Part shown: in pieces, positions 1,638 to 43,200 of the stretch | Numbering within the stretch: position 1 is the first letter of the stretch | Layout of the letters: each line of letters starts with the position of its first letter | Assembly: GCF_964204645.1 (NCBI RefSeq) | Contig: NC_134026.1 | Location: forward strand, 29,422,150-29,486,149 | Direction: 5' to 3' | DNA length: 64,000 nucleotides | Origin: Tubulanus polymorphus | Lineage: Eukaryota > Animalia > Nemertea | Made by a program: the position numbers and the translations under genes | The notes under the pieces: generated by a model | The model's input: the letters and a program-made list of their open reading frames with translations, nothing else | The model's database searches: none | What the model was told of the DNA's origin: nothing

Positions 1638-4610
1638 ATGATGCCAGCGCCACGAATGCCAAGCCCTTTACCGAGGGATCCTGCCATGGCTATGCCGTAA
1701 GTATCATTCCAACTTTTTATTTGTACGTATGTAGTTTTGTCAGATTTGGTGTTACTTAACTTATGAATAGACACAGATGTGATTATAGTTGTGTGATGTG
1801 CAGTCATCATTTTTTGTTTAAATCGAAGTACATAATTGGAAATTTTGGTTCCGGTTAATTTTGAAGATTGTGATCGAAATTCAGTTTAACTTAACTGATT
1901 ATGCTCAAATATTTTGTATTAACCTTAGCTAACTTAAGCTTATCAACTGTTGTGTTCATCATTGTTGACTAGATATTAAATAAAATTATAACCAGGAGAA
2001 GATCCACGGTCCAATCTCGACTACCTCACCAATGAAAAAGGCACATTTGCTTGGGAACAATACCATCAACCCCCAACCCAAAATACTTTTCAGATTAAGT
2101 GTACTTGGAAATTTTGACTCGTCAAACATTTTTAAAAGTTTCAAAGTCGATTTGAATTTTTTTCTGCCTTCATGTAGAGCAATTCGGAGTGCTTCACACG
2201 AGGCATAATCCACTCCTGATGAAAGATATATCAATTCCTAGTTTACCAATTTGGAAGATTATACTAGTGTAAATTGTGTAGAATTTAAGCTGAACATTTC
2301 TACTTGCTTGTCTTCATTTGATTTAAATCTTTTCCCTCTTTTTCCTTCTCTGCGCTTTAATCTATTTTTCTCTAATCACCACCATGATGTACCTTTGTCC
2401 TCCAGATCTGACTACGACTACAATTTGAGAGTAGTTACTCTTTCTAGAGTTCCACTACTGCCAAAAATATCGAAATACTCTTGAAATCAGAATAATTTTT
2501 AGTTCATTTTCTATTAGCCTTAACTACTTTACTCAATTTTCATTTTTTTGAAACCATTCAAATGAAACCTCATTTATACAAACTCTGATAATACAGATTT
2601 ATTGCGTGAATCAAAATTGGAATTTTTTCCTAAAATAGGATGATTATTTATAATTTCATACTGAATAGAATGAACTATCGATTATAACAAAACAGATTTT
2701 CCTGTGCCCTGAAGTTCGTTGTACCGAGTTTCAACTGTAGAAACAAGAGATTTCAGGTATGGTAGTTGGGACTGCTCCTCGCCCCTCTCTCCTGTATCTG
2801 ATGCAGGCACTTGTCGTCGTTAAGTTTATTCGTAACCACTTGTAAAACTACATCAGCAATATTTACCAACTTATCACCTTTTATCGCGTTACCGCGGTTA
2901 CTATCAGACGCTATTCACGTTACTAGGCAACTAAACTTCGGATAAAGTGTCCAATGTTTGGACATAAAAGTTACATGAGCTCACAGTATTTCATATCTGT
3001 TACTGGTGGCTTTCATTCTGCTACGTCTCTGATATCATCTAACAGTTATTTGCCTACTTGGTATGTATTGTATTATAGTGTATTGCATGTATTCTGTTTT
3101 TCTTACGAATTGGATTTAAATATTTGAGTTTGTTATACTTTAATCTAAAGATATATTTGAAGTCGAGGTAATTTTCAGTAATTTTTTGTCGTCATTCCTG
3201 ACCACTTTGGGAGTAGTTTCTGCCCTTTTAAGAGCTCATCTATTCCCAAAAAATATTTGAACACTCTCGAAATCAGACTTATTTTTAGTTCATTTTCGAT
3301 TAAACAACTATTTTGATGTCAAATTATTCTAATTTGTGTTGAAACTACTACGATTAGAGATATCAGGTGATCTCATCTGTGTTGTATTAATCAAGAAAAT
3401 TTCTCTCATCAATTTATTCAAATTCGTGCAAAGTGATTTGAAGACTTTCATCAATTTTTTAAAGACAATTCATAATCAATGAAGAATTTTGTTCTGCTTT
3501 TAACATACAGCGAAGTGTACCGTCGACCGGTATATAAAGAATTTATGTATGAAAAACATTATAATTTAGTCTGAAAGCTGTGAATTATCATTCATTTGAC
3601 AGAAATATTATCTAATTATATGTAATTATCCATATACTACGTGGTGTAGGTCAACTGAGTATGGATTGATTTATTAATGTAGGTTTTTATCATGCCAGTA
3701 ATCCACAGCACTGTTGTGTCTGAGTCTTACAAAATGTTCAAATAATTTGAGGTTGTTCAAGGCCCCTACGAACTCTCCCTTAAACTCTCTTGAGCAGGTT
3801 TTTCTTTGTGGTAGATAGTGTGATAGTTTGCTGATAGATGGCACCATAGATTCAGTTCTCTCATTACAGCGAAACCGCTACTGAAATTTCATTAAATTTA
3901 CTGCTAAAAATATCGTGTTTAAGAATGTTTTCAACTATGCAGTATATATTCTATTCAATACAATAGTCAATGAAAATATGATTCACTATTTTAAGGAATT
4001 AAATTCATCTGTTTTTTTTCTGTCTCTGATAGTTTTGCAGTTATTTAATGCCCTGATAATATTTTCCTAAACAAATAATTAAATTCACTCTCATCCCTGA
4101 TTCAGGGATATGTTTTTTTGTCTGTGCAGATTAAAAAAACGATGCTTCAATTTCATAGCTGTGAGATAAGTTTTTCCATAATTTTTTGGTCGAAGCTGAA
4201 TTCATTTGTTACAATCGACAAAATGTGTTGCCGTGGCAACATTTACAATGCTTTTGTCTTAATTTACGAAACTTTTCTATAAGTTTCGTACCAGATCGAG
4301 TTTTGGGTTGATATTTTATTGTGCTTTGCTCCGATCTTCACTCTGTCGATTCTTGCCGATTTCAATGGTTACCATGGTAACATTAGCTGCCACTGTATAA
4401 AACTCGGAGCCGAGTAATGGGGATGTACCATGTGATAGGGAGATAGATCGGGTGAGTTTAAATCGGTCGGAGGGGTGGTAGCGATGTTTCACCTGTACGC
4501 AATGAAGGAATAGATATTGATTATTTTGGTCCAGTCAGCATCCCCTCATCGAGCATCATTCTCTATGACAATAAGCTAGTCCACATCCTTACAGTTAAAT
4601 ATATATATAT

Positions 4611-4643
<33 letters not shown>

Positions 4644-7600
4644 CATACTTACAGTAATATTCGTACATAAAGCTGTACGATTGGAGGCAAATTGTTTAGA
4701 TTTTATGTGCTTCATCTTTCTCTTATTCTCATTTTATTTGAATATTTCTTACTCAGAATCTCTTTATTCCCTTTATGTAATGTTTTCTTAAAGATGTTAT
4801 ACGAAATATATTCCAATACAATGTTTTGAATTATTAACGCTGAAGCTGCTGGATTTGCTAATAGTACGATATCGAACATCCATTTCAGTTAAAAGTTTAA
4901 TCGCGATTGAAAATTCTCTTAAGATTGGCGTATATTTTTGTAGGGTTATTTCTGAGTGATTATTAAGATAAAAGCCCATTTCATAATGGGAGTCAATATG
5001 ATGTATTAAACTTTGAAAGAAATATCTTAATTCGACTCTGAAAAAATGGGTTTTAACCCGTGAACCACCATCACTCGGCGCACATATCTAATACGCTTAA
5101 CCCTTATATAGCTATGCTGGGTGTACTTTTAACCCATTCATGGCCACCCGTAGATTATATTGTCACGTATTAGAAAGTGACACAGGTTGTATGTGTCGCA
5201 TGTATTGAACTGTACGCGGCTTGTATTGGCAATTCTCCAATGTATTCGCATTGATCTTAGAACAGAGCATATTGAGGTTTTCCCTACCCAATGACTCGAT
5301 TTTTATGCAAATGGCAGCGCGTGGAGCAGGTTCCATACTGCATGTATAATAGTTAACTGAAGCCAATCGGATTGTCAGAGATGCAGTGAGCGCGATGTAT
5401 ATATTATACACTGCTGGGAAATACGTATATCTGCTGTTTACACCGGTTTTATGATGGAATAAAATTTCTCGTCAAACTTTATCCGTATCGTAGAGGAGTG
5501 TTTAATCTAGTCAAATGATGATGAACATGTTAGACGGTGGTCAGATGCCCATGGGGCCTGGCCCGGGCCCTAAAGGACCCATGAATCCGGGAATGACACC
5601 GGATCCTTACTATAGTCCTCAATTTGCTCCTGCTCCTTGTTACAGGCGACATACTCCTTATATGGGGCAACCGGATTACAGGATTTATGAACTTAATAAA
5701 CGTTTACAGCAAAGAACCGAGGTAAGTTCTACTGCTTACTATTTCACGTCACTAATCGTCACATAAACTTCACATTTTATAAATTATGGAAAAACTGTGT
5801 TGACTACTGAAACTATATGCATTAATACAAATCAGACGAGTTGATTGTCTGATTATATTCAATGTGTAACATTAGATTGATATATAGTTGGGTACAGTTT
5901 GCATTTAGCGTTGTTGATGCATGTATTACACGCCGAGTCTATTGTATTGATAATGTATACAGACAGCAGTAGTACTACATTTTAATTCACGTATCTGAAA
6001 CCTGAAAAGTGCTGTATTTTCAATATGAAATCCTACAATATTGTGTCGTATATTTGCAGGAAAGTGACAATCTGTGGTGGGATGCATTCTGTACAGAATT
6101 TTTTGAAGATGATGCGACGCTTACGTTGTCATTTTGTTTAGAAGATGGACCAAAGAGATATAGTACGTGTTGATGGTTCGATTAGTCTTTGTTCAAAAAC
6201 TCACACCGAAGTCATCACTAGAAATGGTTTCCTGATATAACCCGAGCTAATTTGAGACTCAATATTAAACCATAGCCATATAACATTAGGTAGACATACT
6301 GAGCCTGGGGGTAAGATCTGAGGGTCTTACCAAATCTATTGGGCAAAATTATCAGAAAAGAATATTCTGGCAGTGATGCATCGTTTTGACAGGCAATATA
6401 CCTTTTTTGGACAAAATTGTGCCTTTGTTTCACAGAAAGTGCCCTTTAAAGAAACATAGTGCCCAAAGGCCGTTCTGTGATTTTCTGAAGGGGTTGGACC
6501 AGAATTTCTGGTCCAAAATAATTCTGTAATATTTTGAATGGGTGCTTTATTTCAAAAGGGTGGATTTGGCCACATGAGCACATGCAGGCTTGATGCATTG
6601 GAGGAGAAATTTATGAAAATTTGGGGCAAAAGAAGGCTTTTCTGGTTTTATTCCTCAAATTACTGAACTTTGGAGCATATTTGAATATATTCTTATTTTT
6701 CATTGCCAAAGAAAATGTTCCTAACTTTTTGGAGGGCACATTTGAACATACTTTGAAATGGGTGTTAATCCGCACTTGGTGCCAATTTTTACGTTACGTG
6801 CCTTAGAATGAATAGGGCTCTCGAGGTTTTGAGGGTCTTACAGAAATTCCGCGCCTGGATCCATCCACCTATGAAGTCTCCGATCTGAAACTTTATATTT
6901 ATGTTTGTTTTGTAGCTATAGGAAGAACTTTGATACCGAGATATTTCCGCAGTATTTTTGAAGGTGGCGTAACAGATTTATATTATATATTAAAACATCC
7001 CAAAGAATCATTCCATAATACGACATTAACGTTAGACTGCGATCAGGCTATGATGGTTACCCACCACGGTAAACCTATGTTTACCAAGGTTTGTATACCG
7101 GTACATTAAAATTTCTTAAAATCAAATTCGAAATTCTATTCGAGTCACTCGCGTTTCCCTCGAGACTGCATCGAAAACAAGTTATGATTTTGTCGTATAT
7201 AGGTAATAACGGAAGGCCGATTGATATTAGAATTTACATTTGATGATCTTATGAGAATTCGTTCTTGGCATTTTGCAACAAGGCAGCATCGTGAATTAAT
7301 ACCACGTAGTGTGATAGCCATGCAGGTACATGTACGTTGTTTTTCTTATATTTCCCTCATCATTTCCTATACGAATTGTTTTATAGATAAAACAAATAAT
7401 GCTCGTTGAATCCATACTCAGGGGTCAGATTGATGTGAATAATTGATGTCTGTTTCAAGAAATTGTGAAAAAATAAAATCATGAAAATGGTGAAAAATCT
7501 AAGAAAAGTGTATAGCAAAATGTTTTTATCTCCTTTCTTTGTCATTTTCTGAGGAGGTGAGAATTTATGCATAAGTTGGGTTAAGTTTTAAGAATTTTAT

Positions 7601-9595
7601 TTCAATCTGTCCCGATATTGTTCAGTAACTGCTTATGTCATTGTACCTTGACATAGAAAAATGTGCAAAAATCATGAAATATTATGTGAAAAATCCTGGT
7701 GTTGTGAAAAAACCAATAGTTAAGATATGAAAAATCTGAAAATTCACTGAGTTGATCAATCTGAGCCCTGATACTGTATAACTGGCTAAACTTATACTTA
7801 ATTGTTTTTTGTTTTGATGTTTACAGCAGGATCCAGCGATGGTTGAACAGCTCTCAAAAAACATCACGCGACAAGGATTAACAAATTATACTTTAAATTT
7901 TCTAAGAGTGAGTACAGATTTTCGATTGCTTTTCAGATGAGCTGAATAAAGAGCCATGGAAATTTCCGATTGTAGACGATAAGTTGAATTTTAAGTAGAA
8001 ACTTCTTAATTGTATTATTTTCTCTGTTCGATAGTTATGTGTTATATTAGAACCAATGCAAGAACTGATGTCAAGGCACAAGGCGTACGGTTTAAATCCT
8101 CGAGACTGTCTCAAAACGACGTTATTTCAAAAATGGCAGAGAATGGTAGCTCCGCCAGGTAAAGGTGTGCTATCTATCATCAACATTTTTATTATTTTTA
8201 CATTTTTTGACTTATGAAATATCGATTACTGTAATATGGATCGATTGAAAATAATTCACAAGATACAACATTTTGGTTAATATTCTTTCCAAAGTTTTCA
8301 ATTTTCCCTTTTAAACACATTAAGATAATTTCCCAACAAAATTATGTCTTGACAATTTTTATTTGCAAGTGTTTATCTTATGGAGTTTAAACACTAAAAC
8401 CATTTAGTTTGGTCAGAACTCGGTTTCCTGTTCAATTTGATACGAAATTCAATGCAAATTTTGATATCATTTGATTACAGAAAGTCAACGTCAACCGAAT
8501 AAACGTAGAAAACGTAAATCATCAGCGAGCACGAACGCATCAGTGAATAGTGTTGGTAATAGTGGCGGTAAACAAAAGCGATCTCCAGGACCACAATCGG
8601 CTTCATTTAATATCTCATCATCAGTACCTGGTGTAAGTATCAACCCAAACATGTACCAGCCTTTCCCCACCCCTTTGTATCATCTGTGGGTCAAAAATAT
8701 CTCTTAATGGGATGAATGGGTAGGTATCCCCTTCATCCTCCTGGGGCCAGTTTTATAGATTACCTGTAATTTTCCTATCTAGAATTAATTCAATTGACAA
8801 ATCATTTGGTGAAAAACCCTTGGGTTAAAGTTAAGAATAGATCTAATCTATAGAACTGGTTCGTTTTGTTAGTGTATCACGTTAACACACGACCTGTCTG
8901 TGTAAACTGGTGATGTATTTTCATCTAAAGCTATTATCTAAAAGATTATATAACTGTGTACGTTGATGGTGTTAGTTTGTCATCAGCTTCTTAATGAAAT
9001 CAGTAGAAGAAACTTAAGCATTTTAATCATTTCAAATGTCAACTGTTTGTCTGAACATTTGACACTTTGGTAGATTACTTAGTGTATATGGTGTTTAGAT
9101 TGTATAGAATGGCTGATGGCTGGCTTTCATGGGTTGCTGAATCCATACTTGTAAATATCCCAAAATAGTAGTACAGTATATTTATTTTTTCAGGATGTTA
9201 TGGTAGTTGGGGAACCAACACTTATGGGTGGGGACAGTACTGATGAGGATATACGCCTAATAACACGATTAGAAAATGATAATAACAAAGAGAACACCTA
9301 GTTTGCCATCTAGTGGTCATGTTGTGAACTAATATGTACATGTTGTACATGTTTTCAGGATGTAATGGTGGTTGGGGAACCGACGTTGATGGGAGGGGAG
9401 TTCGGCGATGAGGACGAACGATTAATAACACGTCTCGAGAATACGCAGTACGAACCGAACAATGGAGATGACGATCCTAATAATTACCACAGTTCAGCGG
9501 CGTTGAAGTCCGGACCGTGGGGACAACCGCCTCCAGATAGTAAAACTCCCCAACCTCCTAATCCTCCGAACTCTACCGAAGATAAGAAAGACTGA
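1638..9595 (+). CDS. LDB1: LIM domain-binding protein (LDB1/LDB2/Chip), spliced. Exons ~1574/1638-1696, 5511-5721, 6060-6162, 6916-7088, 7203-7325, 7827-7907, 8035-8158, 8481-8632, 9359-9595 (alternative last exon 9194-9301)
   Basis: Joined exons give RRHTPYMGQPDYRIYELNKRLQQRTEESDNLWWDAFCTEFFEDDATLTLSFCLEDGPKRY..., the NLS PNKRRKRK and the LID DVMVVGEPTLMGGEFGDEDERLITRLENTQY, near-identical to known LDB1/Chip. GT-AG junctions are in phase. The N-terminal exon and start codon are less certain; the in-frame join is CC|T CAA ATG at 5511. Confidence 0.97.
2570..2739. mobile_element. Degenerate Tc1/mariner-pogo(Tigger)-like MITE remnant in an LDB intron
   Basis: Ends ...cctgaagttcgttgtaccgagtttcaactgTA. 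A related sequence occurs at ~38806-39052. Confidence 0.4.
4599..4642. repeat. (AT)n microsatellite, interrupted
   Basis: Direct reading of the sequence. Confidence 0.95.
8741..8859. mobile_element. Short palindromic MITE (GG[GA][CT]CCAGTT... family) in an LDB intron
   Basis: Terminal inverted repeats ccagttttatagatta ... taatctatagaactgg, with termini similar to the copies at 30903, 38919, 41166 and 48377. Confidence 0.5.
9194..9301 (+). CDS. Alternative terminal exon of LDB/Chip encoding a variant LIM-interaction domain (DVMVVGEPTLMGGDSTDEDIRLITRLENDNNKENT*)
   Basis: Strong acceptor tttattttttcag at 9181-9193, phase 0 like the 9359 exon. Open for 35 codons to TAG at 9299-9301. 24/28 aa identical to the canonical LID exon. 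Confidence 0.8.
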   Translation, partial: DVMVVGEPTLMGGDSTDEDIRLITRLENDNNKENT

Positions 9596-11711
9596 GAAAT
9601 CAAAAATGGATAACATATTTTACCTTGCCAGTATACGATACAACGGATGGATTATCGCGCAGTGTCCATAGCAACACGCCCGCGGTGCACGTCGATGCAT
9701 TGTTGGCGTGCGATAACGTCAAGAACGCACATACTCTCGGAGAGGGAGACTAGTAGAGACACCTGGTGGATTACTACAACAGCCTGGTCGATATAGACGT
9801 GGTCGGTTTCCCATGTGCAATAGTGAAGTGCGAGTCAGAGAGAATTTGACAGCTGTTAGAATTAACTGTATAATAATATAGGTCAGTCGTTTGACCTACG
9901 TGAACTTTTATAAAAAATGTAAAATAAGTAAACTTAAGATCTGAGTTATTTCATGAGTAAATAATTAATTTGTTGTATGTACAGTTAGTTAGTTGATCCT
10001 GGTCCTATTTATATAAACAGAAAACTGACAGGTTCTATATATACAGTGGTGGATTAACTAAACCCACACTTTCTCTTCTTGAGTTGAAATTATGACGAAG
10101 GAAAAATAGAATCCTTACAGTAAATTAATGGGTAATCGTTTATATTCAGTGAAATTAATGTTTGTTGTGTTGAGTGAATTGACCACTGTGTAAGAGGCTT
10201 GAATTTCTAGAGAACATGTATGTAGTCGATTTAGTATTTATTGTTGAATATTTAACTGTTATACAGAGATTGTATACAGTAATACATGCTATATTAGTTT
10301 CTCAAACTCGGGGGCCCTTTCTGTAACAGTGATTACAACTGTGAATCTCTCTCTTTCTCTTTGTCTATTCCGAGTTCATGGGTTCGATTTTGATTTTTAT
10401 TAGTATCAAAATTGTATGAATTGTTCTTGGAAGTAGACAAAATGATCTGTTTCTGACATTATATCACCCCTGTAACTTGGGCTAGATAGTTATAGATTTC
10501 AACACAAGATGGCAGCATCTACCTACATGTGAGATGAAGCTAGATCGAATCTACTCAGAACCCATGAATTCTGAATATTTTGTATTTATTCCGTAATCAA
10601 ACTTCTGGAATGATTTTAGTTTGTAATCTCCTGTTTTCGAGCTATTTGGTATTGTTAGAATATATTTGAATCACTGCCTTTTTTAAAGGGGAGAATACAT
10701 TTTCTTATTCCAGACATTAAAACTTTATTTTGTAATGTGTCTGAACGTAATGTATGTCGCACGTTTCTGTGGCCAGAATTTCTACAGACTAATAAAAACT
10801 CCTTTCATTTGAAAGTTATAATTAAGATACATTTATCAGGTGTTTTGCTTTTATTTCTGATTAGGGATCGTTTGAGTTGAGCGGATCGGTGAAGTGATCA
10901 ACAATCTCTATCTGCAATTATTGAAAGTGACTCAAAGCCCTTTTGAAAAGCAGATTCTTCTTTTGATAAAGCTTCAGCGTTGATAGAATTATACGTTTCA
11001 AACAAAATAGTACCAGCAAAAATTCATGAAGACTAAAGTCTATGAATTTTTCATCGGACGCAGCCCACTGAACATTTATTACTCGCACATTTATTACTGC
11101 CACAGTAGCATAATCGGTCTTGAACTTGAACTTATTTTACAACTCAAACCACATTACAGTGATACATTGAGGATACAGGAATTATCATGTAAAAACAGTT
11201 ACAAAGAAATGTCGAAAAAGAACAAATTTAGCAATATTCTAACCGTCACGTGCTGCCCCTAGATATAACGTTTGCGGCGAATATGTGAACTAATTTAATC
11301 CCCGCATGCCACAGTTGGAATAATGGGCTATCGGGTTAGTTCATATATTTACCGTCAATGATATACATAGCGGCAGCACTTAACGGTCAAGTTCTGACAA
11401 CCCACTGGCGCGGAACATGACCGGCCGGACAATTTTGTGAAACGTTTTGTCAAGAAATTGTCCTACAAGAGAGCTTAGCAAGTTGATCCAATTCTGATCA
11501 ATATGTGGCACAAAGTTTAGTTGCATGCCTACCTAAGGCGATTAGATCAAATGAACAAAAGAAAACGGCGGTGATAAAAACATTTAGCCGACTGGTGCTG
11601 CCGTCAGGGACAAATTTATACCACAAGGGGGTGCACCGGTAGATTATCAGAAACTCACTGATTTTAATTTTTTAAATTAGGTACTCGTGTTGATTCACAT
11701 TTGGCTTCATA

Positions 11712-12555
11712 ATGCCTCAAGGAAAGATCAAAGTTAAAGCCCAACTACCAAGTGGTACGAAGCAAAAATCAGGGCCGCGCAAAATACCAAAATTAAAGAA
11801 AGGACGTAAGTGTTTTTGTCACTTTTGTTAATTTTTACTTCCTTTTTTTACTTCCTTATCCTATTTTAAGATAAACCAATAAAAATTAACAATAGGAGCC
11901 ATTGCAGTTTATCAATCAGGTGTTCTTAGTGGTTTTGTACCTAATCTAACCATACAATAAGACTATTCTTTATTAACGCTAACCCCACACACCACAGCAC
12001 TAGAGGGTCTAATATTAGGTAGTTAGTTATCTACTCGTTGGTGGTCAACTTTTATAATCGCACGAGCTTATACCTGTGGTATGTCCTATCGTGAGACCAC
12101 ATACAGGTTATTGATTAATGTTGTTAAAGTTCGTAAGAATTCTACGAAAGATATTGGAAAATGGATGGCATCAAGATATTATGTTGACCAGCTAAAACGA
12201 TTTATGAGTCGATGTATAAATCAAGAAAGTATCTCAAATCCATTCTTACAATTCTCATTTCATTTTTACAGCTCATATTCTGAAGCCGAAGAAACCAAGA
12301 CACATCGATGGTGCTAAGTTAAAAGAGGTTAGTACTATCAAATAGTGTCAAATGATATTACAAATCTGTGTAAGATATACGACTATTCCTTTAGTGAAAT
12401 CTGTATATAATTACTGTTTCTATTTTCAGGCAATTTCCAAAACGATTAGTCAAAATGTCGAATCGCAAGTGATTTCAAGAGCGGCCACAATTGAAAATAA
12501 GTCTCTGAACGTATTAAAAACAAACTCAACAACAAAGAAAAAGAAGAAATCCTAA
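11712..12555 (+). CDS. C19orf53: Leydig cell tumor 10 kDa protein homolog (C19orf53/UPF0390-like). Exons 11712-11805, 12272-12327, 12430-12555
   Basis: MPQGKIKVKAQLP...KKG-PHILKPKKPRHIDGAKLKE-AISKTISQNVESQVISRA...KKKKKS: a small basic protein with the family pattern. In-phase GT-AG junctions and an AATAAA at ~12609. Confidence 0.8.
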
Positions 12556-22724: not shown

Positions 22725-25700
22725 ATGGCAGCCAGCACTAAGCAGCCTTTCAACTATTACACAACTGGGAAATATGGCACCCTCCCTCAGAAAGACACTG
22801 AGGTGTCGCAAGATATGCACCTTAAGATGTCAAAGAAAATTGCCCAGCTCACAAAGGTAACCGGATTGTTGAAGCTGGAGTTTTTGTTTTGTTATGATTG
22901 ATGATAGCCTAAAATACCTAGGAATGTTTGATTCTTGTATTTATCTTTACGTCTGTGTCATTTTCAGGTTATTTATGCTTTAAACACAAAAAACGACGAA
23001 CACGAAGCAATAATTCAAAACATCAAAGAACAAAACGAGGAACAAATACAAAAAATATTAGCGGAAACGAAAACTAAACTGGAACAATATCGAAGCAAAA
23101 TCGGAAACGATGTCGAACAAAAACGTAAAATACAATCGCTACGGGATGCGGTCGAGGAATACGAGAGACAGAAGAATCTCGCGCTCGGCGACTTCGAACG
23201 TTTCAAAAAGAACGTCGAAACTCGCGAACACGATATCAAAACCGAACACACGCAGAAAATCATTTCACTATCGAAAGAAATCGCGACGATCAAACGAGAT
23301 TACGAGGAACAACTGACGCGATTCGAGAGTTTACGAATACAGTTCAACGCAGATAAACAATCGATTATCGAAGATATGAAAAACGCTCATAAATTAAAAA
23401 TCGACGAACTGCTTAAAACTCAACAGGGACAGCAGACGGATTTAGAATCTGAGCGTCTTAAAATAGAACGAGAATATAACGAACGGTTACAAAAATTACA
23501 GGACGATTTCGATAAATTAACGGCGGAAAAATCTCGGCTTATCGAGGATTACGACGGGAAATTAAACAAAGCGCAAGCATTTTACGAGAAAGAGTTACAA
23601 GCGTTGAGAGATTCGCAAAGTAAAGCCGGTGACGAGCAGATTAGAGTGTTACGCGGGGAAAACGATAAACTGCGAAAAGATTACGCGTTTTTAGAAAACG
23701 AAAATAAAAAACGCATCGACGATTTGTTACAGCAGATTGTTACGGCTGAAGATGAGGTCGAAAAGTATAAACGGGAATTAGAGAAAGTGAAGAAGGAATT
23801 CGAAGAAAAAGATTCGAATTCGAGAAATATCAGCAGACAGGTTGGTATTAGACCAGGCTCACTAGTAGTCTTAGTTCAAAATACAGTGAACTCCCGATAA
23901 TCCACTCTCCATTTATCCATCACTCCCAGCTACTGCCAAGTAAAAGCTTAGTCCTGGGTCAATCAATGCTTTCAGCTTCCAATATTCTGCCAAATTCCAT
24001 ATCCACCATCTGCCACATAAAGATTCTTAACAAATCTTGTAATAATAGTTCATTTTCGTTAGATAATCCGCCAATGAAAATGTCTAACAAATGTAGTATT
24101 GAAATACAAATTAAAAGTAGTAATGAAGTAAAAATACATCTTAAATAATAGAACAAACTTCTCACTACCTCTTATGTGAAAGGCAGAGTTCAATAGAACG
24201 GTTAATACCTTTATAGAAAACAGCTTAATGATAAAAGTGAATATGTTTTGAGTAATTTCGGGTGTCTTGAATAAAATGGAAATTTCTTAAATTCTCTTAA
24301 ATCCTTCACCCTCAATTATGCACCGAAATCACAGAATTCCTGATAGTGATGGATAACTGGGAGTTGACTGTATTTGGTCGATGTTTAATAATCTTGATCG
24401 ATGTTTGGGATTTTTTTATAGTTATACGAAGTGAAGAATGAATTAGTGGAAACTTTAGGTCGTCTTCAGTTGACGGAAACCGATCTATCATCATCGCGAT
24501 TAAGAGTTGAAGAACAGGCAGAAGAACTGCTCAAACGATCCAGTAAGCAGAACTTTATTCTAAAGCTTTCATCGATCTGTAACTTCTCGTATTATGAAAT
24601 ATCTCAAATAATTGCAGCAAATATCGGTGAACTGGAAGCAACTCGTCTTCAACACGAGGCAACGATTAAAGATTTACGAATGGAAGTTGATAGACTGCGC
24701 GGTAAATTATCACATCTCGAAAAAGAGAAGGGATCAATAGAATCACAGAGTCAGTCTCATCAACATGAAACTAACAATAAAATCCGCACTTTAGAAAGGG
24801 TAAAGTATCATACTTTTGAATTGATTTGTATAATTTTCCACCGAAGTTTGATTAGAATTCTGATTTTAATTTCCTGACATCGTTTATTAGTTATTGGAAG
24901 ATCTACAAGTTGAGAAAAAAACAATGCAAGAGAAATTTGAGAGAGAAATTGTGAATCTGGAACAGAAATCTAAACAGAAAGAGAGTCAATTAATAGAATC
25001 GCATGCCACGGCCTTCTCTAAATTGCGAACACAAAATCAATCTGAGTATGACGAGTTAAAGAAAAATAAAGATGAGGAGATTGCAAAAATTAAAAGAGTG
25101 AGTATAGAAATAGTAGAAAAGTCCACGCATATCAGGATTACATCTCAGTAAAGACCACAAACGATGATTATTTTCATAAATCTTGTAGGAATTGGAAGCG
25201 ATGTTGAATAATAATTCTGAAAAATTCCGCGAAGATTACGAATCGCAGCAAGCAGAATTAATTAGAATTAAAAATGAGTTCAATAATCAACTACAAAAAG
25301 CCAATGATGAGGTGAGCTTTAAACCAGTACACAAATATCCAAGTAGAAACTGAACAATATCATACAATATGGTTATTCTTTTAAAAGATTTCAAGATTGG
25401 AGAAATTGATATCTGAAAGGGAACAAGGCCTCGGTTCAGCTTCTAGTGAGATCGAAACTCTAAAGAATACATCGGAAAAATTAAAGAAAGAACTAGAATC
25501 AACAAAAAATGATCTGAAATCAATCACCGACGAGTCTGTTATAACTAAGGTTTGTATATGTTATCTATTCTCTCGTCTGTAATTATTGTGTATAATCGAG
25601 TTTGGAATGTGCAACATTTGTAATTTTTAGGACGAGTTGCAGAAATTAAGACGTTTACACGAAGAAAAACTGCGAGAAGCAGCAGAAATGCTAGAAAAAC

Positions 25701-28649: not shown

Positions 28650-31600
28650 TCAGTCGAACTGTAAATTAACGGGAGATATTCTATTGATAGGTGTTGTAGT
28701 TCTCTCAAAGCTCGACTGTTCACGTTCCGGAGGAAATGATCTCATATTCGCGATCTGACGTAATAACGCTTTACCTTCTTCCTTTGTCTAAAAAAAAACA
28801 ACACGAAATCAAAGATCGAAGCAGAGACCAGAGTCTGAACTATTAGATTGATTAGTAGAAGCAAAAACTCAGAATAATACAAGAACAACAGGTATATGGT
28901 TCTCGCGTTTTAGAGTATTTAACCCAGCATTAATTGAATAGGTAGACTAGAAGTATTCTCTGTTTCAATGCAGGTTGTTTTGTTTAATTCGATATAGATT
29001 AATAATTACCTGATAGAATTCAGTGCATTTAGTAGCAGCGACGTAAGCCTCATTTAATCTGTGATGTTTCAGGTGATAATTGGCGAGATATTGATAAGCC
29101 TGAGATAATTCCTCGATATTTGACTGCTACAATATCAAACATATCACACCTTGAAGACTACGTGTACTGTACATTTCTGAATTAACGAAGGACAAGTTTA
29201 CACCGAATACAAACCTGTGGTTGCTGGGATTCATTTATATATTCAGTATAAGCCACGGCTGCTTGTTCTTCTTCATTCAGTTTTGCGTATAATCTGCAGA
29301 AATAATTAGCGCGTCGCAGCATGTCCATGAAATAAAGGAATCGTCCATTGTTCATTATCATACTCACTTCGCTAACTTAATCAACGCCAATCCTTCCACG
29401 TCTCCGATATTGTGGGCTTTCCAGAAACACTTTTTAGCCTCTTGTAAACGATCTAATTTCTCGTAAGTTTCTCCTAAAGCGACAATCATTCTGGAATCGT
29501 TCGGCCTATAAAACAACAATTCCAGCACCGATATCAGTTATACGGAAGCGATAAGGGGCCTCGAGATGTCGCGTTCCAACTCGACAAGTCACCATATTTA
29601 TGTCGACATATCGCAATATATCGCGTCACGTCGACACGAATATGTCGATATATCGTGACGTAATCACGACAAATTTCGCTTTTTCGCCAATTTTCCACGG
29701 GACAAGCCGTCATTTGAAGACACGTCTAAATGTAAGACGAGGACGCCAGTAATATGACGACTGGGTTTCAAGTCGTCATGAATATGTCGACTTGTCGCGA
29801 AGAGAGTGGTCGAGAAAACGAAATATGTCGTCAAAACGTCACGATATGTCGACATATTCATGTCGACTTGACGCGATATATCGCGATATATCGACATAAA
29901 TATGACGACTTGTCGAGCTGGAACGCGACATCTCGAGGCCCCTTATCGCTTCTGTACAGTTATGCAAATAAAGACCAAAACGTAGGTATTTTAGATGAAA
30001 CTGTTCTTACCTTAATTGCTGAGCTTGTCTATAGTAATACATACAATAGAACGGCATTTTTAGAATTTCATAAGTTTGACCCAATCCATACCACGCCCTG
30101 TAGTCTCTCTTATTCACTTCTACAAAATAATCATTCAATTTCTCAACTAACTTTTAGAAAAATATGAATTTGTTAATATCGAGTCTTACCGATGGCTTGT
30201 CTATAAGCTTGTATAGCAGCTGAGGAATTCTTCATTTCCATGTATTCATGTCCCATCAATGTCCACGCTGACAAATAATGCGGGTTTAACTTCAAAGCTC
30301 TTTGGAAATACAAGACGGCTTTTTCATGCTGCGATCGCAAACTGTAATAATTGCCTTTAAAGAGATTTTAAAACCAGTAATAAATGACCTAGTACAGTAA
30401 GTAGATTACAGTAGAAATTGCCTTGAATTATTTGATGCTTCAGACAAAGTTTGAAATTGTCCTGCTCCAATTCATGTGATGATGACCAATCATCGCTCTG
30501 ACGGCCGCGGAATTCCCTCCTTGTCTCAGATTTTTGTACTCTATAGTCTGAAATCTAGTACGTAATTAGGTCTGGTTTACTGTATAAAAACTCACCTATA
30601 ACACAACAAGTTTCAACTCTATATTTGTCCACATCACAACAATGATGAGCTAATGTCGCTAATTCAGCCCTCATTTCCTTGAATCAAACAGAAATTAACA
30701 TTAAAATTTCATCTCCGGAGTTTATGAAATGTGATCGGTAATACATTTTACCTTGACGTAAAGTAAATTTGAGAAGATATCCATGTGTTCTAATCTGTAG
30801 GGATCAAGTTCTTGTATTTCAGTAAATGCTTCAACTGCCTGATCGACATCTATAAAGATAATTCACAGATTTCAATCAAACATCACTGATGATACAAAAA
30901 TCATGGGCCAATTGTACAGTCATGGGTTACATTTAAGACAAGTTTAAGACCATCTTACTTCTGTAGCCAATCTATAAGACAATTCTTAGGATTCAAGACC
31001 ACTAGTGGATGTCAAGACAGTAAAACTGAGTCCATGATCTGTTTATTCATTACCTCTGATATTATGGTAATGTACAGCTATCTGTGAACGTATATAGACA
31101 CTGTTTGAGAATCCGTGATCCAATAATTTCTGATAAAGCTGTAAAGCATCATCATTCAGTTGAAGTTCTAGATACATGTGACCGAGGAAAAATACTTTCA
31201 TCCAATGATCGGGAAGTTTCTGATTCATTAACTGAATAAAAATAATCCAAAATAATAATATTATTCTAAACTCGAAACATGAAAGCCTTTCAATAGATCA
31301 CGCATACAACTCACCATATCCTTATCTCTAATGAGTGTTGATAGCTCTAACCAAGCTCCCCAATGTAAGGGTTCACTATGAACTGCCTCTATCAACACAG
31401 AAAGTGCTTCTTTCTGTAAATCTAGTTTTTTCAATATCACTCCGTATCTACGAATAAATGATAACCTCAAATCATACACAATATTAACGAGAATCAGAAA
31501 ATTGATTTTGTTAGAAATTAGTTTCACGATCGGATATTGGTATAAGCCAATCCGATTATAGAAGCTTACTACTACTCACAAATATAATAAAAACCCATCC

Positions 31601-33536
31601 AATCCCTGATCTTTGTGATGTATTTGTAATTCAGTGCGCAACATACAAAGATGTTCATTATCGCCCTTATCAGCAGGTCCTAAATAAAATAAAACAAATC
31701 CATACATTAATTCATAAACAAAAGCAATCAATTGAGATTTTCTAATACAATACCTATTGTATCACTAGTTTCATCTAAACGTTTTTTCTCACCAGCCAAA
31801 TATCTAGAATACATTTGCAGGAAGAAAACCTTGTTATTTTTCGTGCAATTCTGCAGGAAAAATGCTGCTCTTTCATATTCCTTCAGATCAAAATAACTCT
31901 TAGCTAGAATATAATTATCATCGCATTCAACCAAATCCTACAGTGAGAGAAACAGAAAAACGTATTAGTTATTTCAGTACGTTAATTGCAGTATGTTAAT
32001 TAGGGATATAATTTAGTGGCTATGAGTGATTCAATCACCTGTGTTTGAAGTGACTTTAATTCTTCTGTGATGTCAACTTCATTTAGAGCGAATAATAATT
32101 CGGCCGACCTATAAAAAATAGAAAATGACTTTATGAAATAACTAGAAATATCATTTGGTGTAATAGGGGACAGATTTTAGTGTAATATAGCCGGTCCGAG
32201 CGAAAGTTTCGAATACGAATACGAATACGAATACGAATATTTATTACACTCCAACCATTTCCATGGTATATGGAGGAAAAGAAACAGTATTTACAATTAT
32301 TTACAAAAACAGTAGATAAAAGCACTTTGAAACATAACAAACGTTATTTACAACATACTATTTACACACACTACCGGAGGGATCTATATACATCCAGACC
32401 TAATTTGATAAATTTAGCAAGTTTAAAAGTTGGATTTTTTAAAACATCAAGATTCCGAAAGGTATTTGAATTTAGGTAGCTTTCACGGAATACGGTAAGT
32501 AATTTACAGTCAAAAATGAAATGTAGTTCGTCGCCTAAAACGTTACAGGTGGGGCATAATCTATCGGTTCTCGGTAGATGGAGATTTGACAATTTATTTA
32601 CAGGTAGGAGATAAGACCCAATCCTGAACTGGAATAAGCTGGTCACTAAGTCGTCATCAAGCCGATTTATATAGTTTTCAAATTTGATATCCTTCTTATA
32701 TTGTCTAAAATTAATGTATAACGGGTTATTATTTAGCCTAAATTCTGTCTCTTGCACATGCTGATCACGGAGTAAACGGTGTAATTGTTTTGGAGAAGTC
32801 CTAGAGTTTACCATAGATTGTTGTGTCCATATATACGAAAGGCCACAGTCATCAAAAGTCTTCTTAATAAATAACAGCCAGGGGCTCTTAAACCTATCAT
32901 TCAGATATAAATTATAAGATATCTTATAGAGAATTGAACTAAGTTTACTTTGTTTGCACTCTATCGTTTTGACCCAAAAATTAATCATTCTACGCTTTAC
33001 GCTTATATACATAGGACAACGTCCTAACTCCGCTAATACTTGAAGGTTATGGGAATATTTTGTAACTTTCATGATAATTTTACAAAATAAACAGTGGAGG
33101 TTTTCTAATAAGTCAAGGTTTTCATATCCCCAGATTTCGCAACCGTACAACGCGATAGGAGCGACGCACATGTCAAATAGTTTAAACATTACATCTACTG
33201 GAAGTTTCAAACGTCTGCCCTTTTGAATAATAGAATACATAGCTTTCATAGCTTTATCATAGAGAAATTTTTTTGCTTTAGCGAAACTACCGTTCCAATT
33301 GAATTTCAGTTTCAATACCAGCAAGTGCTGCCACCTCTAGTAGACCTGTAGTAAATCTACATTCCCTGGTAATTTCGGCTGTCTAATTTATATGATTGTA
33401 AAAATACAAACGAAATAGATATGGAAAATATGTACCATTTTGAACTATGGAGTAAACCTCGAGCAGAACATATCCTATTAGCGTCAAATAGTTCTTTTTT
33501 AATTGTTTTCAGATTCCAACTCGAAATAGCCGCCAT
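28650..33536 (-). CDS. CDC23: Anaphase-promoting complex subunit 8 (CDC23), multi-exon TPR protein
   Basis: [116 protein letters not shown] at 33536, TGA at 28652-28650. Confidence 0.97.
29541..29956. mobile_element. Non-autonomous DNA transposon (IS3EU-like MITE), copy 1, in a CDC23 intron
   Basis: Long TIRs starting TACGGAAGCGATAAGGGGCCTCGAGATGTCGCG and a 6-bp direct repeat CAGTTA on both sides (29535-29540, 29957-29962). Confidence 0.9.
30903..31037. mobile_element. Short palindromic MITE in a CDC23 intron
   Basis: Imperfect inverted termini catgggccaattgtacagtc ... gacagtaaaactgagtccatg. Confidence 0.45.
32210..33307 (-). mobile_element. 5'-truncated non-LTR retrotransposon (LINE ORF2 C-terminal part, ORF 32371-33324) in CDC23 intron 1
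   Basis: Post-RT thumb motif KAMKAMY...[18 protein letters not shown] and C-terminal CCHC knuckle [19 protein letters not shown]. The 3' end is AATAAA+(TATTCG)5. Candidate TSD AGTTTC at 32205-32210 and 33308-33313. Confidence 0.9.
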
Positions 33537-34097: not shown

Positions 34098-37005
<2,908 letters not shown>

Positions 37006-37257: not shown

Positions 37258-40200
37258 TTAAATGAGTCTATCAAGTTTGGCTTGTAATCCTTTGAAATCA
37301 CGGATAAGCTGATTGACAGGGATATCTATGCTGCTAGTTGATTGAAGTTCGACCAAATATCCGGCAAGTGCATCCAAACAAACAGTAGTAAACTGACGTC
37401 TGTAAAAACAACAAAATCAATTTAACATCAAAAAGTTACACAAGTTCATTAGTCTGTACTGGGTAGGTATCAATATGCCATTGAAAGGAGTGTGCTGATA
37501 AAATGTCTAATATCTGGTGTTTGTACGAGTATTTGTTTCAATTAAAAACTTAAGAACCGAATATCTGAAAAGGTAGGGTCCAGCTTGCATTAAATAAGGT
37601 TATGTTTACCTCTCATAAACTGGTACTAGAGCTGGAGTATCTGTGAATGCTAGAATCAGTTGATGAACAGCAGATAATAAATGTAATGGTTTTTTACTGG
37701 TTACCCAGAATGGATCCTGTAAGAAATGAAACACATTTTTACCGGGATGATTCAATAATTAAATACTGAAAACAAAACCTTATCACGCAGAGAGTGAATA
37801 ATCTTACCTTTGATTTGATCAGTCTATCATAAATTTCCAATAGAGTAGTTATTTTCACTCCGCAATCGATTAGAATAGTGAAAACCCATTTAGAGTCGAA
37901 ACCTAACTGACAACTTCTCTTTTCTAAATACTGTATTAGAAATGCTGAAACGATCGATTAAAGTTTTTAATACACTGTTTAACTTGATACAGGCTTACGA
38001 TTTGTGGAATGTTTATACAGTAACACGTACCAACAGGGAAATATCTCTCAGTAGCCGAGTAACTTCTGCCCAATGATACAATCTTATTACTCAATATTGT
38101 CATCGCTGTTTGAGATGGAATGTTAGCAGTCGTATTCAATTCTGTAAAATCCATAAATCATGACTTCAATCTCATATTTACACAACCAAAGATTGAGGCG
38201 AAGACAAATATGTGGTGTTATGGTCAGTTGCCCGAGACAAGTTGTTGTTTACTTTCTCACCATAAGAGGAACAGAAGTTATTACCTTTTTCAATGATATC
38301 CTGCCAAAGCGATTCAACCAAACTAGGGTCATAATGACTAGCGCAGTGGATGATAGCTAGTTTACTTTCTGCGATATCGAACCTTTCAGCGAAATCGCCG
38401 TATAACTGAAATTCAACCAGATGAATGAATGAATTCATTTTTACTGTGAATATTATGAGTTGATTCCACGTTATACTCACAGTAGTTATATCTAGCAGTT
38501 CAGAGTTCAATCGACTGATAGCCTCCTCGAGTTGTGGTACGGTTGCTGGTAGTCTTTGTAAAGTTTCGAGCATCTGTATTTGGAGTCTTGCGACGTCCAT
38601 TTTCTCCTCGAGTTCGTGGAGGAATTCGCCGTCTGCTCCAGAAACTCCTCGTATTGTGGAACTTTTAGCGCACATGATCGCTCGTGATAAATATTCAATA
38701 CGCTGCTGTAATGTCACATCAGTTCTACAATATGATTAATACATTACTAACTTACAAAAATCATACAAGAGACACTTGAGAATTAAAGCTTTCTATTATA
38801 TATGTACGAAACCTCGTTTCATCACAAACCGAGAATTTCATCCCAAATTTGACAATTTTAATAAGTTGATACTGGATATAACGAACTAGCCGCTATAATG
38901 AACATATTTTCTAGTCACCTGACCCAGTTCCACAGTTGTAAGTTAAAAGTTGACTCAGATTTAACTTGTTGAAAATGAACTAATTTCAACTCGGTTAACC
39001 CTAGCTCAGAACTGTGGAAGTGGATCCTGAAGTTCGTTGAAGTTCGAGTCTATAAAAGTTACAATAGACTCCGCTTGTCTCATAATTCACATGACTAATG
39101 AATTTTTTCCCCAAGACAGCAAGCGAATTCTGGAGTAGGTGGACCAACCATAATTCATCATCGCATGAAGGGAAAAAAAACCTTTAAGATTTTGTGATAA
39201 TCCTAAGGCAATTGACTCGCAAGGCAAACGCAAGTGAATTAACAAGAGACAATGAATATAAAGTTCACATACTGTTGTCTGTCTGCTAGTTTAGCTTGAA
39301 TCTTTGCCGCGGCTTGATAATTCTTGGTTTTCTCATAGTATTTCCACAACAGGTCCAACATTTCAGTCTCCTGCGCATTATGCTCAGTGGGTGCTTTCTT
39401 CAAAAATGCTTCAAGGAACGGCGATTGTATCTAGAAAACGAAAGTGCATAGGTAATGTAAATTGACACTATTAAACTCCATCAGTTTCATTCAGCGTATT
39501 TCAAACTACAATTGCACCTCTAAAAGTTTTTCATATAATTTCTGTTCGAGCAACCATTCATAGAGCGCTACATGGAAGAGTTGATCATCAGACCTTAAAG
39601 CCAGTTGAAACATTGACTCGCTCTGTAACAGAAAAGGTAAAATAGCCATTTAATCGATTGGGTAAAATACTAAAGAGAAAAAAGAGGAACGATACTCACA
39701 TACTGTTCAGCTTCATTGCTAGTTAATCTATCAGTATCCACAGCAGGAGGGGGTCCAGGTGTTCTAGGAACACTAGGTGATTGCGGATGTAGCATACTAG
39801 TCGATAACAAGCCTCCCAGCGTATCAGTTATACATTTATAAGCTTGATTTCTGCAATATTAATCATATCAAAATTTCTAAAAGAACCACAGGTGATCAGT
39901 ATGATCCGCATGCCTATTGAACTATCACAGCCACTTACCTTTTAAAGAATGCTTCCATTCCTGGATAATCGACTGTTAATGCACCACCGCACGAATAGTA
40001 ATGCAACGCTAACTGTTGAGGGTCACATTTATTGGCGACGCATAAACTCAAATCAACGATTCCCTCGTAGAAATGAACGAACGCAAAGTAATTACAAACA
40101 GACGGCAAATTAACACTGATAGCTATATTCTTATATAACTGAAAAGAAAACAATTCGAAAAACATGTGAAAACAATGAAAACGAATGAATTTAGAATAGT

Positions 40201-43200
40201 CAGCAGTTGAACAGTTTTAGCACAATTTGTTTAATCCTGATGTTTTAAACCAAAGTGTCAAATTTCAACCAAGAATTGCAAAATTGGATCTTGGATATTT
40301 AACTCACCGCTAAAGCCTCTCTAAGAATTGCTTCTCTTTCATTTGGATTTTGAATTGTTTTTACAGTCTGAAGCATTTCGTTTGCCTTGAAATATAAACA
40401 TAATTCGTTAGACAGTTGAAAGTTGTGTATGCTGTGCTTAAAGACGATCATTATTTATGTCATCATACCTTAGAACAAATAGCGTCCTCAGTGCTGTACA
40501 GAGTTGGACAAACTTCACGTAGTCTGCCACTGATAGCATCAACTGAAGCATTATCATTCAGATAATTGCGGATAATACTCGATACTAGTTCCTGACACAG
40601 CTAGTAATCAAAACAAAAAACAAAATCGTCAAACTTTTCGCCTCATGAAAAAAGAAGAGATTCAAATCATAACGTCAACTTACCTCTTTTCCAACAAGAC
40701 AAAACTGTCTGAATGTCATGGATTTTATGGTGTTTGTATTACGCTAGAAAACAACAAACAATCAATAAAATTGTTTTAACACGCATTATTGTAAAATATT
40801 CAGATACGCATGTGTACCAACCTCATCAAGCATAGCTATAACTGTATGGAACTGATGATCGCAGATTATCTTCCATAATCCAAGAGCCTCATAAGTCCTA
40901 TTAATCAACACTAGTATCTGTTGAAGGGAGGTTTTCTCATGAGTTTGAGCTTCAGCTGAAATAAAATAACAAACTGATATTACTTCTCAATAGTTTTTAA
41001 AATGTGAAGAATGAAGATGAACTACCGGTATATATACATTACCTTGTTGTTTCCTATACTGATCATCCATTTGACCCACAAGTCGACTTTGTTGAAAACT
41101 GGTCGTTCTACAATAATTGGAAGCATTAGATTCTCCTGATGCTTCTAAATATGCTATATAAAGTCCAGGATCCAGTTCCACAGTCGTGAGTTAGAGTTAA
41201 CTCTGAGTTAAAGTTAGTTCATTTTCAATGAGTAAACTCAGAGTCAAATCTTAACTCACAACTGTGGAACTGGACCCAAATTGCTTACTTACCCATCAGC
41301 GAGGCCTTGAGCGGAGAAATGAGTATTTGATTCGATAAAATCTTTCAAACCTTCCAAATGTTTAAGGAACCAACTAAGTTCTTCACTACTAAAGCGACTG
41401 CTTAGCTGTAAACAGCAACGAACAATTCATCTTACACAAAATAGATTAAATTTCAAAAATTCTAAATGAAGAATCATTCTTACAAATTCCTTTCCTCCGC
41501 AATTCAATGGCTTGTCGGACACAATTCTCATTTCCCAAATTGGCCTTAAAGTTAACACAAATCGAGTTTAAGTCATAAACATTCTCACAATAACATAATA
41601 CTCACATAACAAATAGTCAATTTACCTTAGAATACGAGATAGGTATAAACATATGCCATTATGTTTGCCCGAGAATTTGATATCCAGAGTGAAGTTTGGA
41701 CCAGTCGACGAACCAAACTGTGATTTCTGAGCGAACACTGTGTTAGGAGTGGACATCTGGATCGGTTGCGAGCCTAAAAATATCATTTCGATAATATATT
41801 TCAATGAACAAAGATTTTGAGCGATGGAACACCACGGTGGGTGATAGAAGAGTAAAGTCTTACCATGAGCAGGTGTTGCAAACGGAATTGTTTGAGACAT
41901 CGGTGAACTAGGCTGAAATCCTGAAGTACGCGATGCTGAAATTAACAACTTTAAGGTTAGTTTCAGGTTTGTTTTTTAAGCATCCGAACTGAAATCAAGA
42001 ATACCAACAAAATCGTACCAACAGCCGGAGATTGCGGGAAACCCGGTCCGATATTTCCAGTTTGTGACGGAGCGGATGAGAGGTAATTATACGTGGATTC
42101 TCCGCCGTACAAGAAGAAAGCTCTCGTCGCCCATTCAACTATGTGTTGATTCGACGGAGATCGGGAACAACAAAGAATCAAACACGTAGCACACGCTTGC
42201 TCTTCTTTATGCAGCTGAAAGAACGCTTTCACTTCCTCATTATCCGCGCCTTGATTTCTAATGAGAAGTTGTTGTAATTGATTCACCGGTAAATATTTAT
42301 CCATTAAATGCGATCCCTAAAATCAACAGACAGTTTATATCAATAATAGAATAACCACACTGAACTGTGAAGAATAGAAAATATACATTTAAAACCCACT
42401 ATATATGAATTTACAAGATTCTGAAAATAGTACCTGGGTCCAAAATATTGTCTTTTAACTTTTGATAAATGAATCATGTTATCAATCTTTTAAGTTTATG
42501 CGTATAAACCGGGGTTGTGGGTTATATATCATCACATCCATCGGATAATAGACTGATGATGATATAATGGCGTACCTTAGAACTAAGAAGAACAAATCTT
42601 CTGATTGGTTGGATATGTTGACTAACCACGATTGGTGGGTCACATTTTCCCGGCGTTTTAAAAGAGTCATCAGCTTCGAATCTCGGTAAACGAACTGGTA
42701 TTTCTGATAGAACCCACGTCCGTCCATCAACTGGAGTCATCGTCTAAAATAAACACATCAATCATTAGTGATTCAATATTTCCCATAAAAAACCGTCAGT
42801 AAGTTTGACTGTATCATTGAGAGACACCCACAATATCAATTTAAACATTCTGTTATTGTTTATTTTTGTTATTTTTCATATAAACTCCAGAGATGGGTGA
42901 AATAATTCCATCCTACGTAAGAACAAAAGCAATATAGGTAATAGTTATTTGAATTGATATTGTGGGTTTCTCAATGATATTCACGAAGATTGGAAATAGT
43001 CTTAATCATTTACATTGATTTAGAGACTTTACCTGTGTTTCCATGAGTTGCTGTTGAAAAGGGAAAGTATCGGCGCCGAGAGTCCACAATACATCACTAT
43101 CTACTTCTTTCCGAGAGGATGATAGAACTAAAGTACCTGCAAGATATAAACCTCATTAGTCAGATAAATTTATCCTGAATTTCATCTAAGATACAATCAT

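Follow-up and report, generated by a model that had tools for sequence, protein, structure and literature searches.

Can LDB/Chip, the common scaffold of LIM-homeodomain and LMO complexes, whose LIM-interaction domain (LID) is nearly unchanged across animals, be made with two different LIDs from one gene? The question is raised by an intron-rich LDB/Chip gene on the + strand of a 64,000-nt window (the whole stretch of DNA that was analysed), in which two LID exons, A and B, stand in tandem. Its membership of the family is supported by the N-terminal LIM_bind (dimerisation) domain PF01803, which scores 30.3 bits against a cut-off of 24.2 on the frame at 6915-7088, and by the C-terminal LID PF17916, which is recognised in both exons (36.7 bits for A and 47.9 for B; Pfam cut-off 25). 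Isoform B shares 74-80% identity with mollusc LDBs and falls into one group with them in a 27-row tree (82/98), which makes the animal a probable lophotrochozoan. A six-frame HMM scan of the whole 64 kb window places LIDs in exons A and B only, and LDB1 chains in the PDB align with exon A (11 distinct sequences, E ≤ 1). None of the runs is recorded as RNA; X2 and X5 are treated here as RNA on the ground that GT..AG introns are skipped in their contigs. The gene is laid out as follows.

1638..1696, + strand: alternative first coding exon, ATG at 1638; joint 1696>5646 (GT..AG) in run X2, depth 31.8; frame open through the gene
5515..5721, + strand: second alternative N-terminus, from 5515 into the common part 5646-5721; X2 contig 5351-5675 unspliced, depth 8.1
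6060-6162, 6916-7088, 7203-7331, 7827-7907, 8035-8164, + strand: common LDB exons, dimerisation region; joints in X2, several also in X5
8481..8632, + strand: penultimate exon with a basic KRRKRK stretch, ending in the phase-0 donor GTAAGT common to A and B
8633..9193, + strand: last intron; X2 contig 8604-9223, depth 17.1; the retained form leads to a stop at 8705-8707
9177..9193, + strand: exon A acceptor, T-rich tract plus CAG, from the pyrimidine count and joint 8632>9194
9194..9301, + strand: coding part of exon A, a variant LID followed by a tail of 7 residues and a stop; counted from the 1638 start, isoform A has 336 aa
9233..9253, + strand: altered spacer in exon A, EFG>DST at 9233-9241 (Ldb1 313-315) and E>I at 9251-9253 (Ldb1 319)
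9302..9358, + strand: 57 nt between A and B, with a branch-point-like CTAAT at 9329-9333, the B acceptor and a predicted hairpin; within the isoform A 3' UTR
9359..9595, + strand: coding part of exon B, the canonical LID followed by a tail of 50 residues; counted from the 1638 start, isoform B has 379 aa
9596..10658, + strand: 3' UTR common to the A and B isoforms, its end given by the reach of X2 contig 9359-10658

The start in the 5515 exon together with exon B gives an open frame of 403 aa. The KRRKRK stretch of the penultimate exon is presumably an NLS. At the 7331>7827 joint, the second of two close GT donors (7326-7332) is joined to the first of two tandem CAG acceptors (7827-7829); small length variants are possible at this joint, and none was seen.

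Exons A and B each start after CAG in phase 0, with 165 nt between the two starts. Of the 28 LID codons, 12 are the same in both exons, 12 differ synonymously and 4 non-synonymously (E>D, F>S, G>T and E>I), corresponding to 61/84 identical nucleotides and 24/28 identical residues, with pS 0.72, pN 0.139 and pN/pS 0.19 (Fisher p 1.6e-6; Nei-Gojobori). All four residue changes fit within 7 codons (p 0.022). When neutral decay was simulated, at least 24 of the 28 residues survived without a stop in 0 of 20,000 trials at 0.35 or more substitutions per site, and in 0.8% at 0.2. No similarity is observed between the 58 nt 5' of the two acceptors (469 of 500 shuffles score as well) or between the sequences 3' of the two LIDs (190 of 500), and the unrelated intron flanks imply that the copy is old. 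DNA run X1 provides one contig (4658-11168) that crosses both exons and belongs to a different haplotype from the window; it differs at 17 letters, and among the 16 listed none lies in exon A or B. Polymorphism is uninformative here, with no listed difference in exon A of this haplotype against 4 in the 561-nt intron.

Both exons are thus present in genomic DNA in undisrupted form, and their silent sites have diverged almost to saturation. The original prediction had described exon A as an old duplicate under purifying selection, which the pN/pS ratio, the decay simulations and the unrelated flanks support. The coordinates, translations and phase 0 that it gave for the two exons are correct on recheck, its tally of 12 synonymous and 4 amino-acid changes over 28 codons was reproduced, and the LID of A is, as claimed, without indel or premature stop; it also scores above the Pfam cut-off. 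The changes are also where it had put them, in or next to the linker, three of the four falling on Ldb1 E313-G315 and the fourth at E319. The silent-site excess proves past, not present, selection on exon A, since degenerate copies in other loci (see below), one of them with a stop, also have low pN/pS.

Exon A is used at the RNA level, at least in one run. From the donor at 8632, X2 contains a joint to 9194 with a depth of 34.3 and a joint to 9359 with a depth of 48.5, together 82.8 against 83.7 for the upstream spliced contig; contig depth is a poor expression measure, and these values show only that the A and B junctions are of the same order. In X5 (depth about 4.5) the joint 8632>9359 is present and the joint to 9194 absent, the exon A joint thus being found in one of the two spliced runs (one run of one sample). 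The short side of the joints is 25 letters for both in X2 (tool guide 31) and 119 for the B joint in X5; 25 letters are, we infer, expected from contig words of 31 letters when A and B share their first 5 bases. Runs X3 and X4 yield short unspliced contigs at the locus and no joints, which is uninformative either way, and X6 has no coverage of the LDB locus.

The X2 contig 9194-9388 passes unspliced from A into B, and neither AATAAA nor ATTAAA (the two signals searched for) occurs from 9191 to 10715. A and B are therefore competing acceptors with one 3' end, and the exon B region serves as 3' UTR of the isoform A transcript. The exon A acceptor tract, with 11/14 pyrimidines, has the highest count among the 34 AGs scanned in the last intron, while the exon B acceptor has a consensus CTAAT at -30. 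A hairpin predicted across the B acceptor tract has a z of -2.36 (3 of 200 shuffles) in a region chosen after inspection, and no notable fold is predicted over 9100-9400 (z -0.38). A T-rich A acceptor set against a B branch point and predicted hairpin could explain the use of both. Much of what had been proposed for splicing is consistent with these observations: A has a strong acceptor of its own, two acceptors compete from donor 8632 to give two isoforms (in one RNA run), and the suggested comparison of 8632->9194 with 8632->9359 returned both junctions in X2 and only 9359 in X5. The description as two alternative terminal exons stands as regards splicing of both from 8632, but they do not form independent last exons, each with a poly(A) site of its own. 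That neither isoform should be subject to NMD, as had been expected, is a reasonable inference, the last splice junction observed being upstream of both stops.

Retention of the last intron, as in X2 contig 8604-9223, leads to a predicted product of 325 aa without a LID; this contig may be unspliced pre-mRNA. A read-through protein with two LIDs is ruled out by two in-frame stops between A and B and by the absence of a joint leaving exon A.

By the criteria tested, LDB A/B is a C-terminal tandem duplicated exon substitution, and one that has no counterpart for the LID domain in the open-access literature searched. In such substitutions, as the available text of PMC9741552 and PMC8373072 describes them, consecutive homologous exons occur in distinct transcripts; 77/236 of the human cases affect the C-terminus, key residues are usually preserved, and orthologues often show convergent events (PMC9741552, available text). 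The homologous peptides in consecutive exons, for which at least 7 residues are required, here have 24/28 identical residues at a distance of 165 nt, and each copy is found in a distinct coding transcript in X2 (the A joint in 1/2 spliced runs). LDB A/B resembles the C-terminal class of TPM1 and CAPZB in that one C-terminal segment is swapped for a homologous one; it differs in that the acceptors are 165 nt apart with one 3' end and no choice of poly(A) site. The supplement of PMC8373072 lists TPM1 and CAPZB but neither LDB1 nor LDB2, and both LDB genes are likewise missing from one supplement file of PMC9741552. Alternative last exons of the CAPZB type have their own 3' ends (PMC3228551, available text), a property that A does not share, given contig 9194-9388 and no AATAAA or ATTAAA (these signals only).

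Known splicing of vertebrate LDB/CLIM/NLI removes the LID (Tran et al. 2006, as cited in the available text of PMC8033514). Similar to that system, splicing at the LID-coding end changes the LDB C-terminus here, and the retained-intron form is also LID-less; however, isoform A swaps in a second homologous LID, above the Pfam cut-off, with no deletion, so that only the retained-intron form, which may be pre-mRNA, would belong with the LID-less isoforms. The LIDs of Isl1/Isl2 and LIM-7 are, like A and B, natural variants that combine two LIM-binding motifs with a spacer that varies (PMC3405102 and PMC5496915, available text), but these are separate proteins with divergent motifs, whereas here one gene encodes identical motifs with different spacers. 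A duplicated LID exon was not found in the open-access literature searched, including the available text of PMC11361279 and PMC2989770.

In the numbering used here, LID D1 corresponds to Ldb1 D300, and M11, D19 and R21 to M310, D318 and R320, which fits the published numbering. The LID of exon A differs by E313D, F314S, G315T and E319I and by no other change; codons 1-13 and 21-28 encode the same residues as in B, and both the N-terminal LIM2-binding motif and the LIM1-binding motif (R320-LITR), which E319I adjoins, are kept. Position 314 is Ser in exon A instead of hydrophobic. The exon A spacer reads DSTDED and gains two S/T-x-x-D/E motifs (STDE and TDED), which we take to be CK2-type, and the C-terminal tail goes from 50 residues with four lysines in B to 7 residues with one lysine in A. 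In Ldb1, the spacer comprises M310-D318, with E313-G315 a short disordered part, and may set the inter-LIM angle (PMC3405102, available text), while the available text of PMC5496915 has LID spacers adding little or nothing to binding and the main hot spot of C. elegans LIM-7 located in the spacer. R320-LITR is the key LMO2-binding motif of Ldb1, and the tail lysine K365 affects turnover (10.1101/706259, available text); the LIM1-binding motif includes I322 (10.1101/706259 and PMC4195752, available text).

A survey of 391 retrieved proteins, a redundant and vertebrate-rich set, provided 378 parsed LIDs (16 proteins gave no pattern match and three gave two LIDs). Ldb1 position 314 is F, L or Y in 376 of these 378, and the only two exceptions are the insect-type records P0001 and P0210. 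P0001, a gene model named Ephemera danica that carries the NCBI flag UNVERIFIED_CONTAM and groups with arthropod LDBs in the 27-row tree, has a variant LID with the spacer GGGTADSSDEDE upstream of a canonical LID; P0210, read from an ORF of a JGI contig 1394 nt long, shares this variant LID and diverges directly after it. Like exon A, these variants have lost F314-G315, read DSSDED (DSTDED in A) and keep both LIM-binding motifs; unlike exon A, they have three extra residues in the spacer and retain E319, and they are known as protein database records only. Either shared descent or convergence could account for the likeness of the insect-type variant and exon A; dating the insect variant by its PT or PS residue was rejected as this residue toggles among lineages. 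The parallel suggests that the spacer change is more than a chance event in a single species.

The window's own variant LID is absent among the 120 listed of 434 matches at 71-2000 aa, a weak result in that clustering can hide isoforms, and likewise among the best 120 of 353 matches to the P0001 region, the 47 protein matches at 19-70 aa and the listed 150 of 308 matches in 50% representatives. Three frames of the window have no exact match in the protein collection, and no relative was found in prokaryote and viral contigs. It is conceivable, if rather unlikely, that distant protostome LDBs carry a hidden second LID exon with the acidic serine/threonine motif DS[S/T]DED for EFG, inherited or evolved repeatedly; splicing would then pick a constitutive or a phosphorylation-switchable LID, and a single gene would provide the LIM code with an input that depends on signals. 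The doubled LIDs of P0002 (eel name) and P0257 (amphioxus name) were rejected as real tandem LIDs, the copies being identical and the flanks duplicated; they are probably assembly or gene-model duplications. P0260, the one LIM sequence among the proteins retrieved, is a one-domain LMO2-LID fusion protein.

The reading that we favour, with a probability of about 0.55, is that LDB/Chip splices donor 8632 to either of the tandem LID acceptors and that A likely binds the same LIM partners as a tuned version. Isoform A mRNA would be translated, and the product would co-dimerise with B through the common N-terminus. Without the near-invariant F314-G315 and with the new S/T-x-x-D/E motifs, affinity, the inter-LIM angle or phospho-control may be altered, and loss of the 50-residue tail may alter turnover. 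How much of each isoform is made would depend on a contest between the T-rich proximal acceptor and the distal acceptor with its consensus branch point. Judged from sequence, the changed spacer and short tail are likely to affect how strong, how arranged or how long-lived the complexes are more than partner choice; the spacer may nevertheless matter more than 'tuning' implies, since F, L or Y at 314 is so nearly universal among the parsed LIDs.

The original prediction put forward a potential switch of partner specificity, in which LID-A favours other LIM-homeodomain or LMO partners and splicing rewires the LIM code. We regard this as unlikely, and it has lost its place as the leading reading, because A and B share identical LIM-binding motifs and three of the four changes fall on E313-G315, which is disordered (PMC3405102, available text), in a spacer of the kind said to add little to binding (PMC5496915, available text). 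Some weight is left to it by the near-invariance of the altered position 314 elsewhere (376/378), by E319I bordering R320-LITR, and by the suggested role of the spacer in setting the inter-LIM angle (PMC3405102) together with the hot spot in LIM-7 (PMC5496915; available text of both).

Alternatively, LID-A may bind LIM partners weakly, so that A dilutes B in LDB dimers in the manner of the vertebrate LID-less forms. This would be consistent with the existence of those splice isoforms (Tran 2006, as cited in the available text of PMC8033514), with the dominant-negative behaviour of human LDB1 with a damaged LID (PMC13504347, available text), with the LID-less retained-intron contig also present in X2 and with the lower Pfam LID score of A (36.7 vs 47.9). 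However, a pure attenuator would have no need to keep 24/28 residues and both motifs across near-saturated silent sites, and we consider the proposal improbable.

Exon A could also be a relaxing duplicate, once useful or never needed, that is spliced only through an inherited strong acceptor. This bears on copies observed elsewhere: a scan of other loci gave at least 66 metagenome loci with a canonical LID, and among the 66 listed, an intact second LID occurs in 0 and two or three degenerate copies lie upstream in 7 (two sequence types). The last intron is wholly in view in 16 listed loci (13 distinct), with degenerate copies in 3 (1 distinct) and intact ones in 0. The degenerate tandem copies before the canonical exon are located at:

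L016/L017/L021, 2407-2661
L042, 1-210
L044, 865-1242
L045, 96-473
L046, 1264-1639

They consist of the acceptor and the first half of the LID exon, the canonical LID there reading GDKDERLIARLEN, and have pN/pS of 0.08-0.37 in six comparisons, with a stop in one copy. In the L044 copy at 874 the intron flank is kept (0/500 shuffles), the differences are mostly silent and the LIM2-binding half is preserved while the LIM1 motif is broken, and this copy could encode a half-LID. These loci show that in-place duplication of the LID exon has occurred in several lineages. In 7/66 listed loci the copies carry stops or frameshifts and still show a silent-site excess, as a relaxing duplicate would; this is the chief result that speaks against the favoured reading of exon A, and the A junction is backed by one RNA run only. 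Exon A nevertheless is free of stops and indels, its motifs are unaltered and its substitutions are concentrated in the spacer; the A and B junctions have depths of one order, and the insect-type variant LID is identical across its LID in two records; the chance that A is such a relic is accordingly slim. In L066 (1408-1602) an intron splits the LID after EPS, and in L061-L064 the LID stops abruptly after ITR or ITRL, patterns that suggest lineage-specific introns inside the LID.

An origin of exon A as an assembly artefact, collapsed paralog or haplotype duplication, of which the doubled-LID proteins P0002 and P0257 with identical LIDs and duplicated flanks are a reminder, is refuted by the independent X1 DNA contig across both exons, and the RNA contig running from A into B and the 61/84 nucleotide identity of copies with unrelated flanks make it next to inconceivable.

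Under the favoured reading of a tuned second LID, a natural LID in which both motifs are kept and the spacer is rewritten is a ready-made separation-of-function allele, and with exon A the reason for the strong conservation of a spacer that has been called disordered can be put to the test. Only one LDB gene is seen in the window, and if the choice between A and B were regulated by tissue or stage, a splicing layer would be added to the LIM code.

Neighbouring genes were read by Pfam over window positions 22605-55369 and are:

22932-23897: FAM184
31264-31575: Cdc23/ANAPC8
35482-35781: FAD-binding domain, below cut-off
38181-44266: Nup133/155-type nucleoporin
52369-53133: AMOP-domain protein

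An open frame of 321 aa on the minus strand (32371-33336) has no Pfam match; it may correspond to the C-terminal region of a protein from a LINE-type retroelement. The long first intron of LDB contains dispersed repeats at about 1810-1856 and 2470-3340, with many loose ends and non-canonical joints in X1. Downstream of LDB, a short lysine-rich gene of three exons (11713-12540) has very high contig depth in X2 (about 3000).
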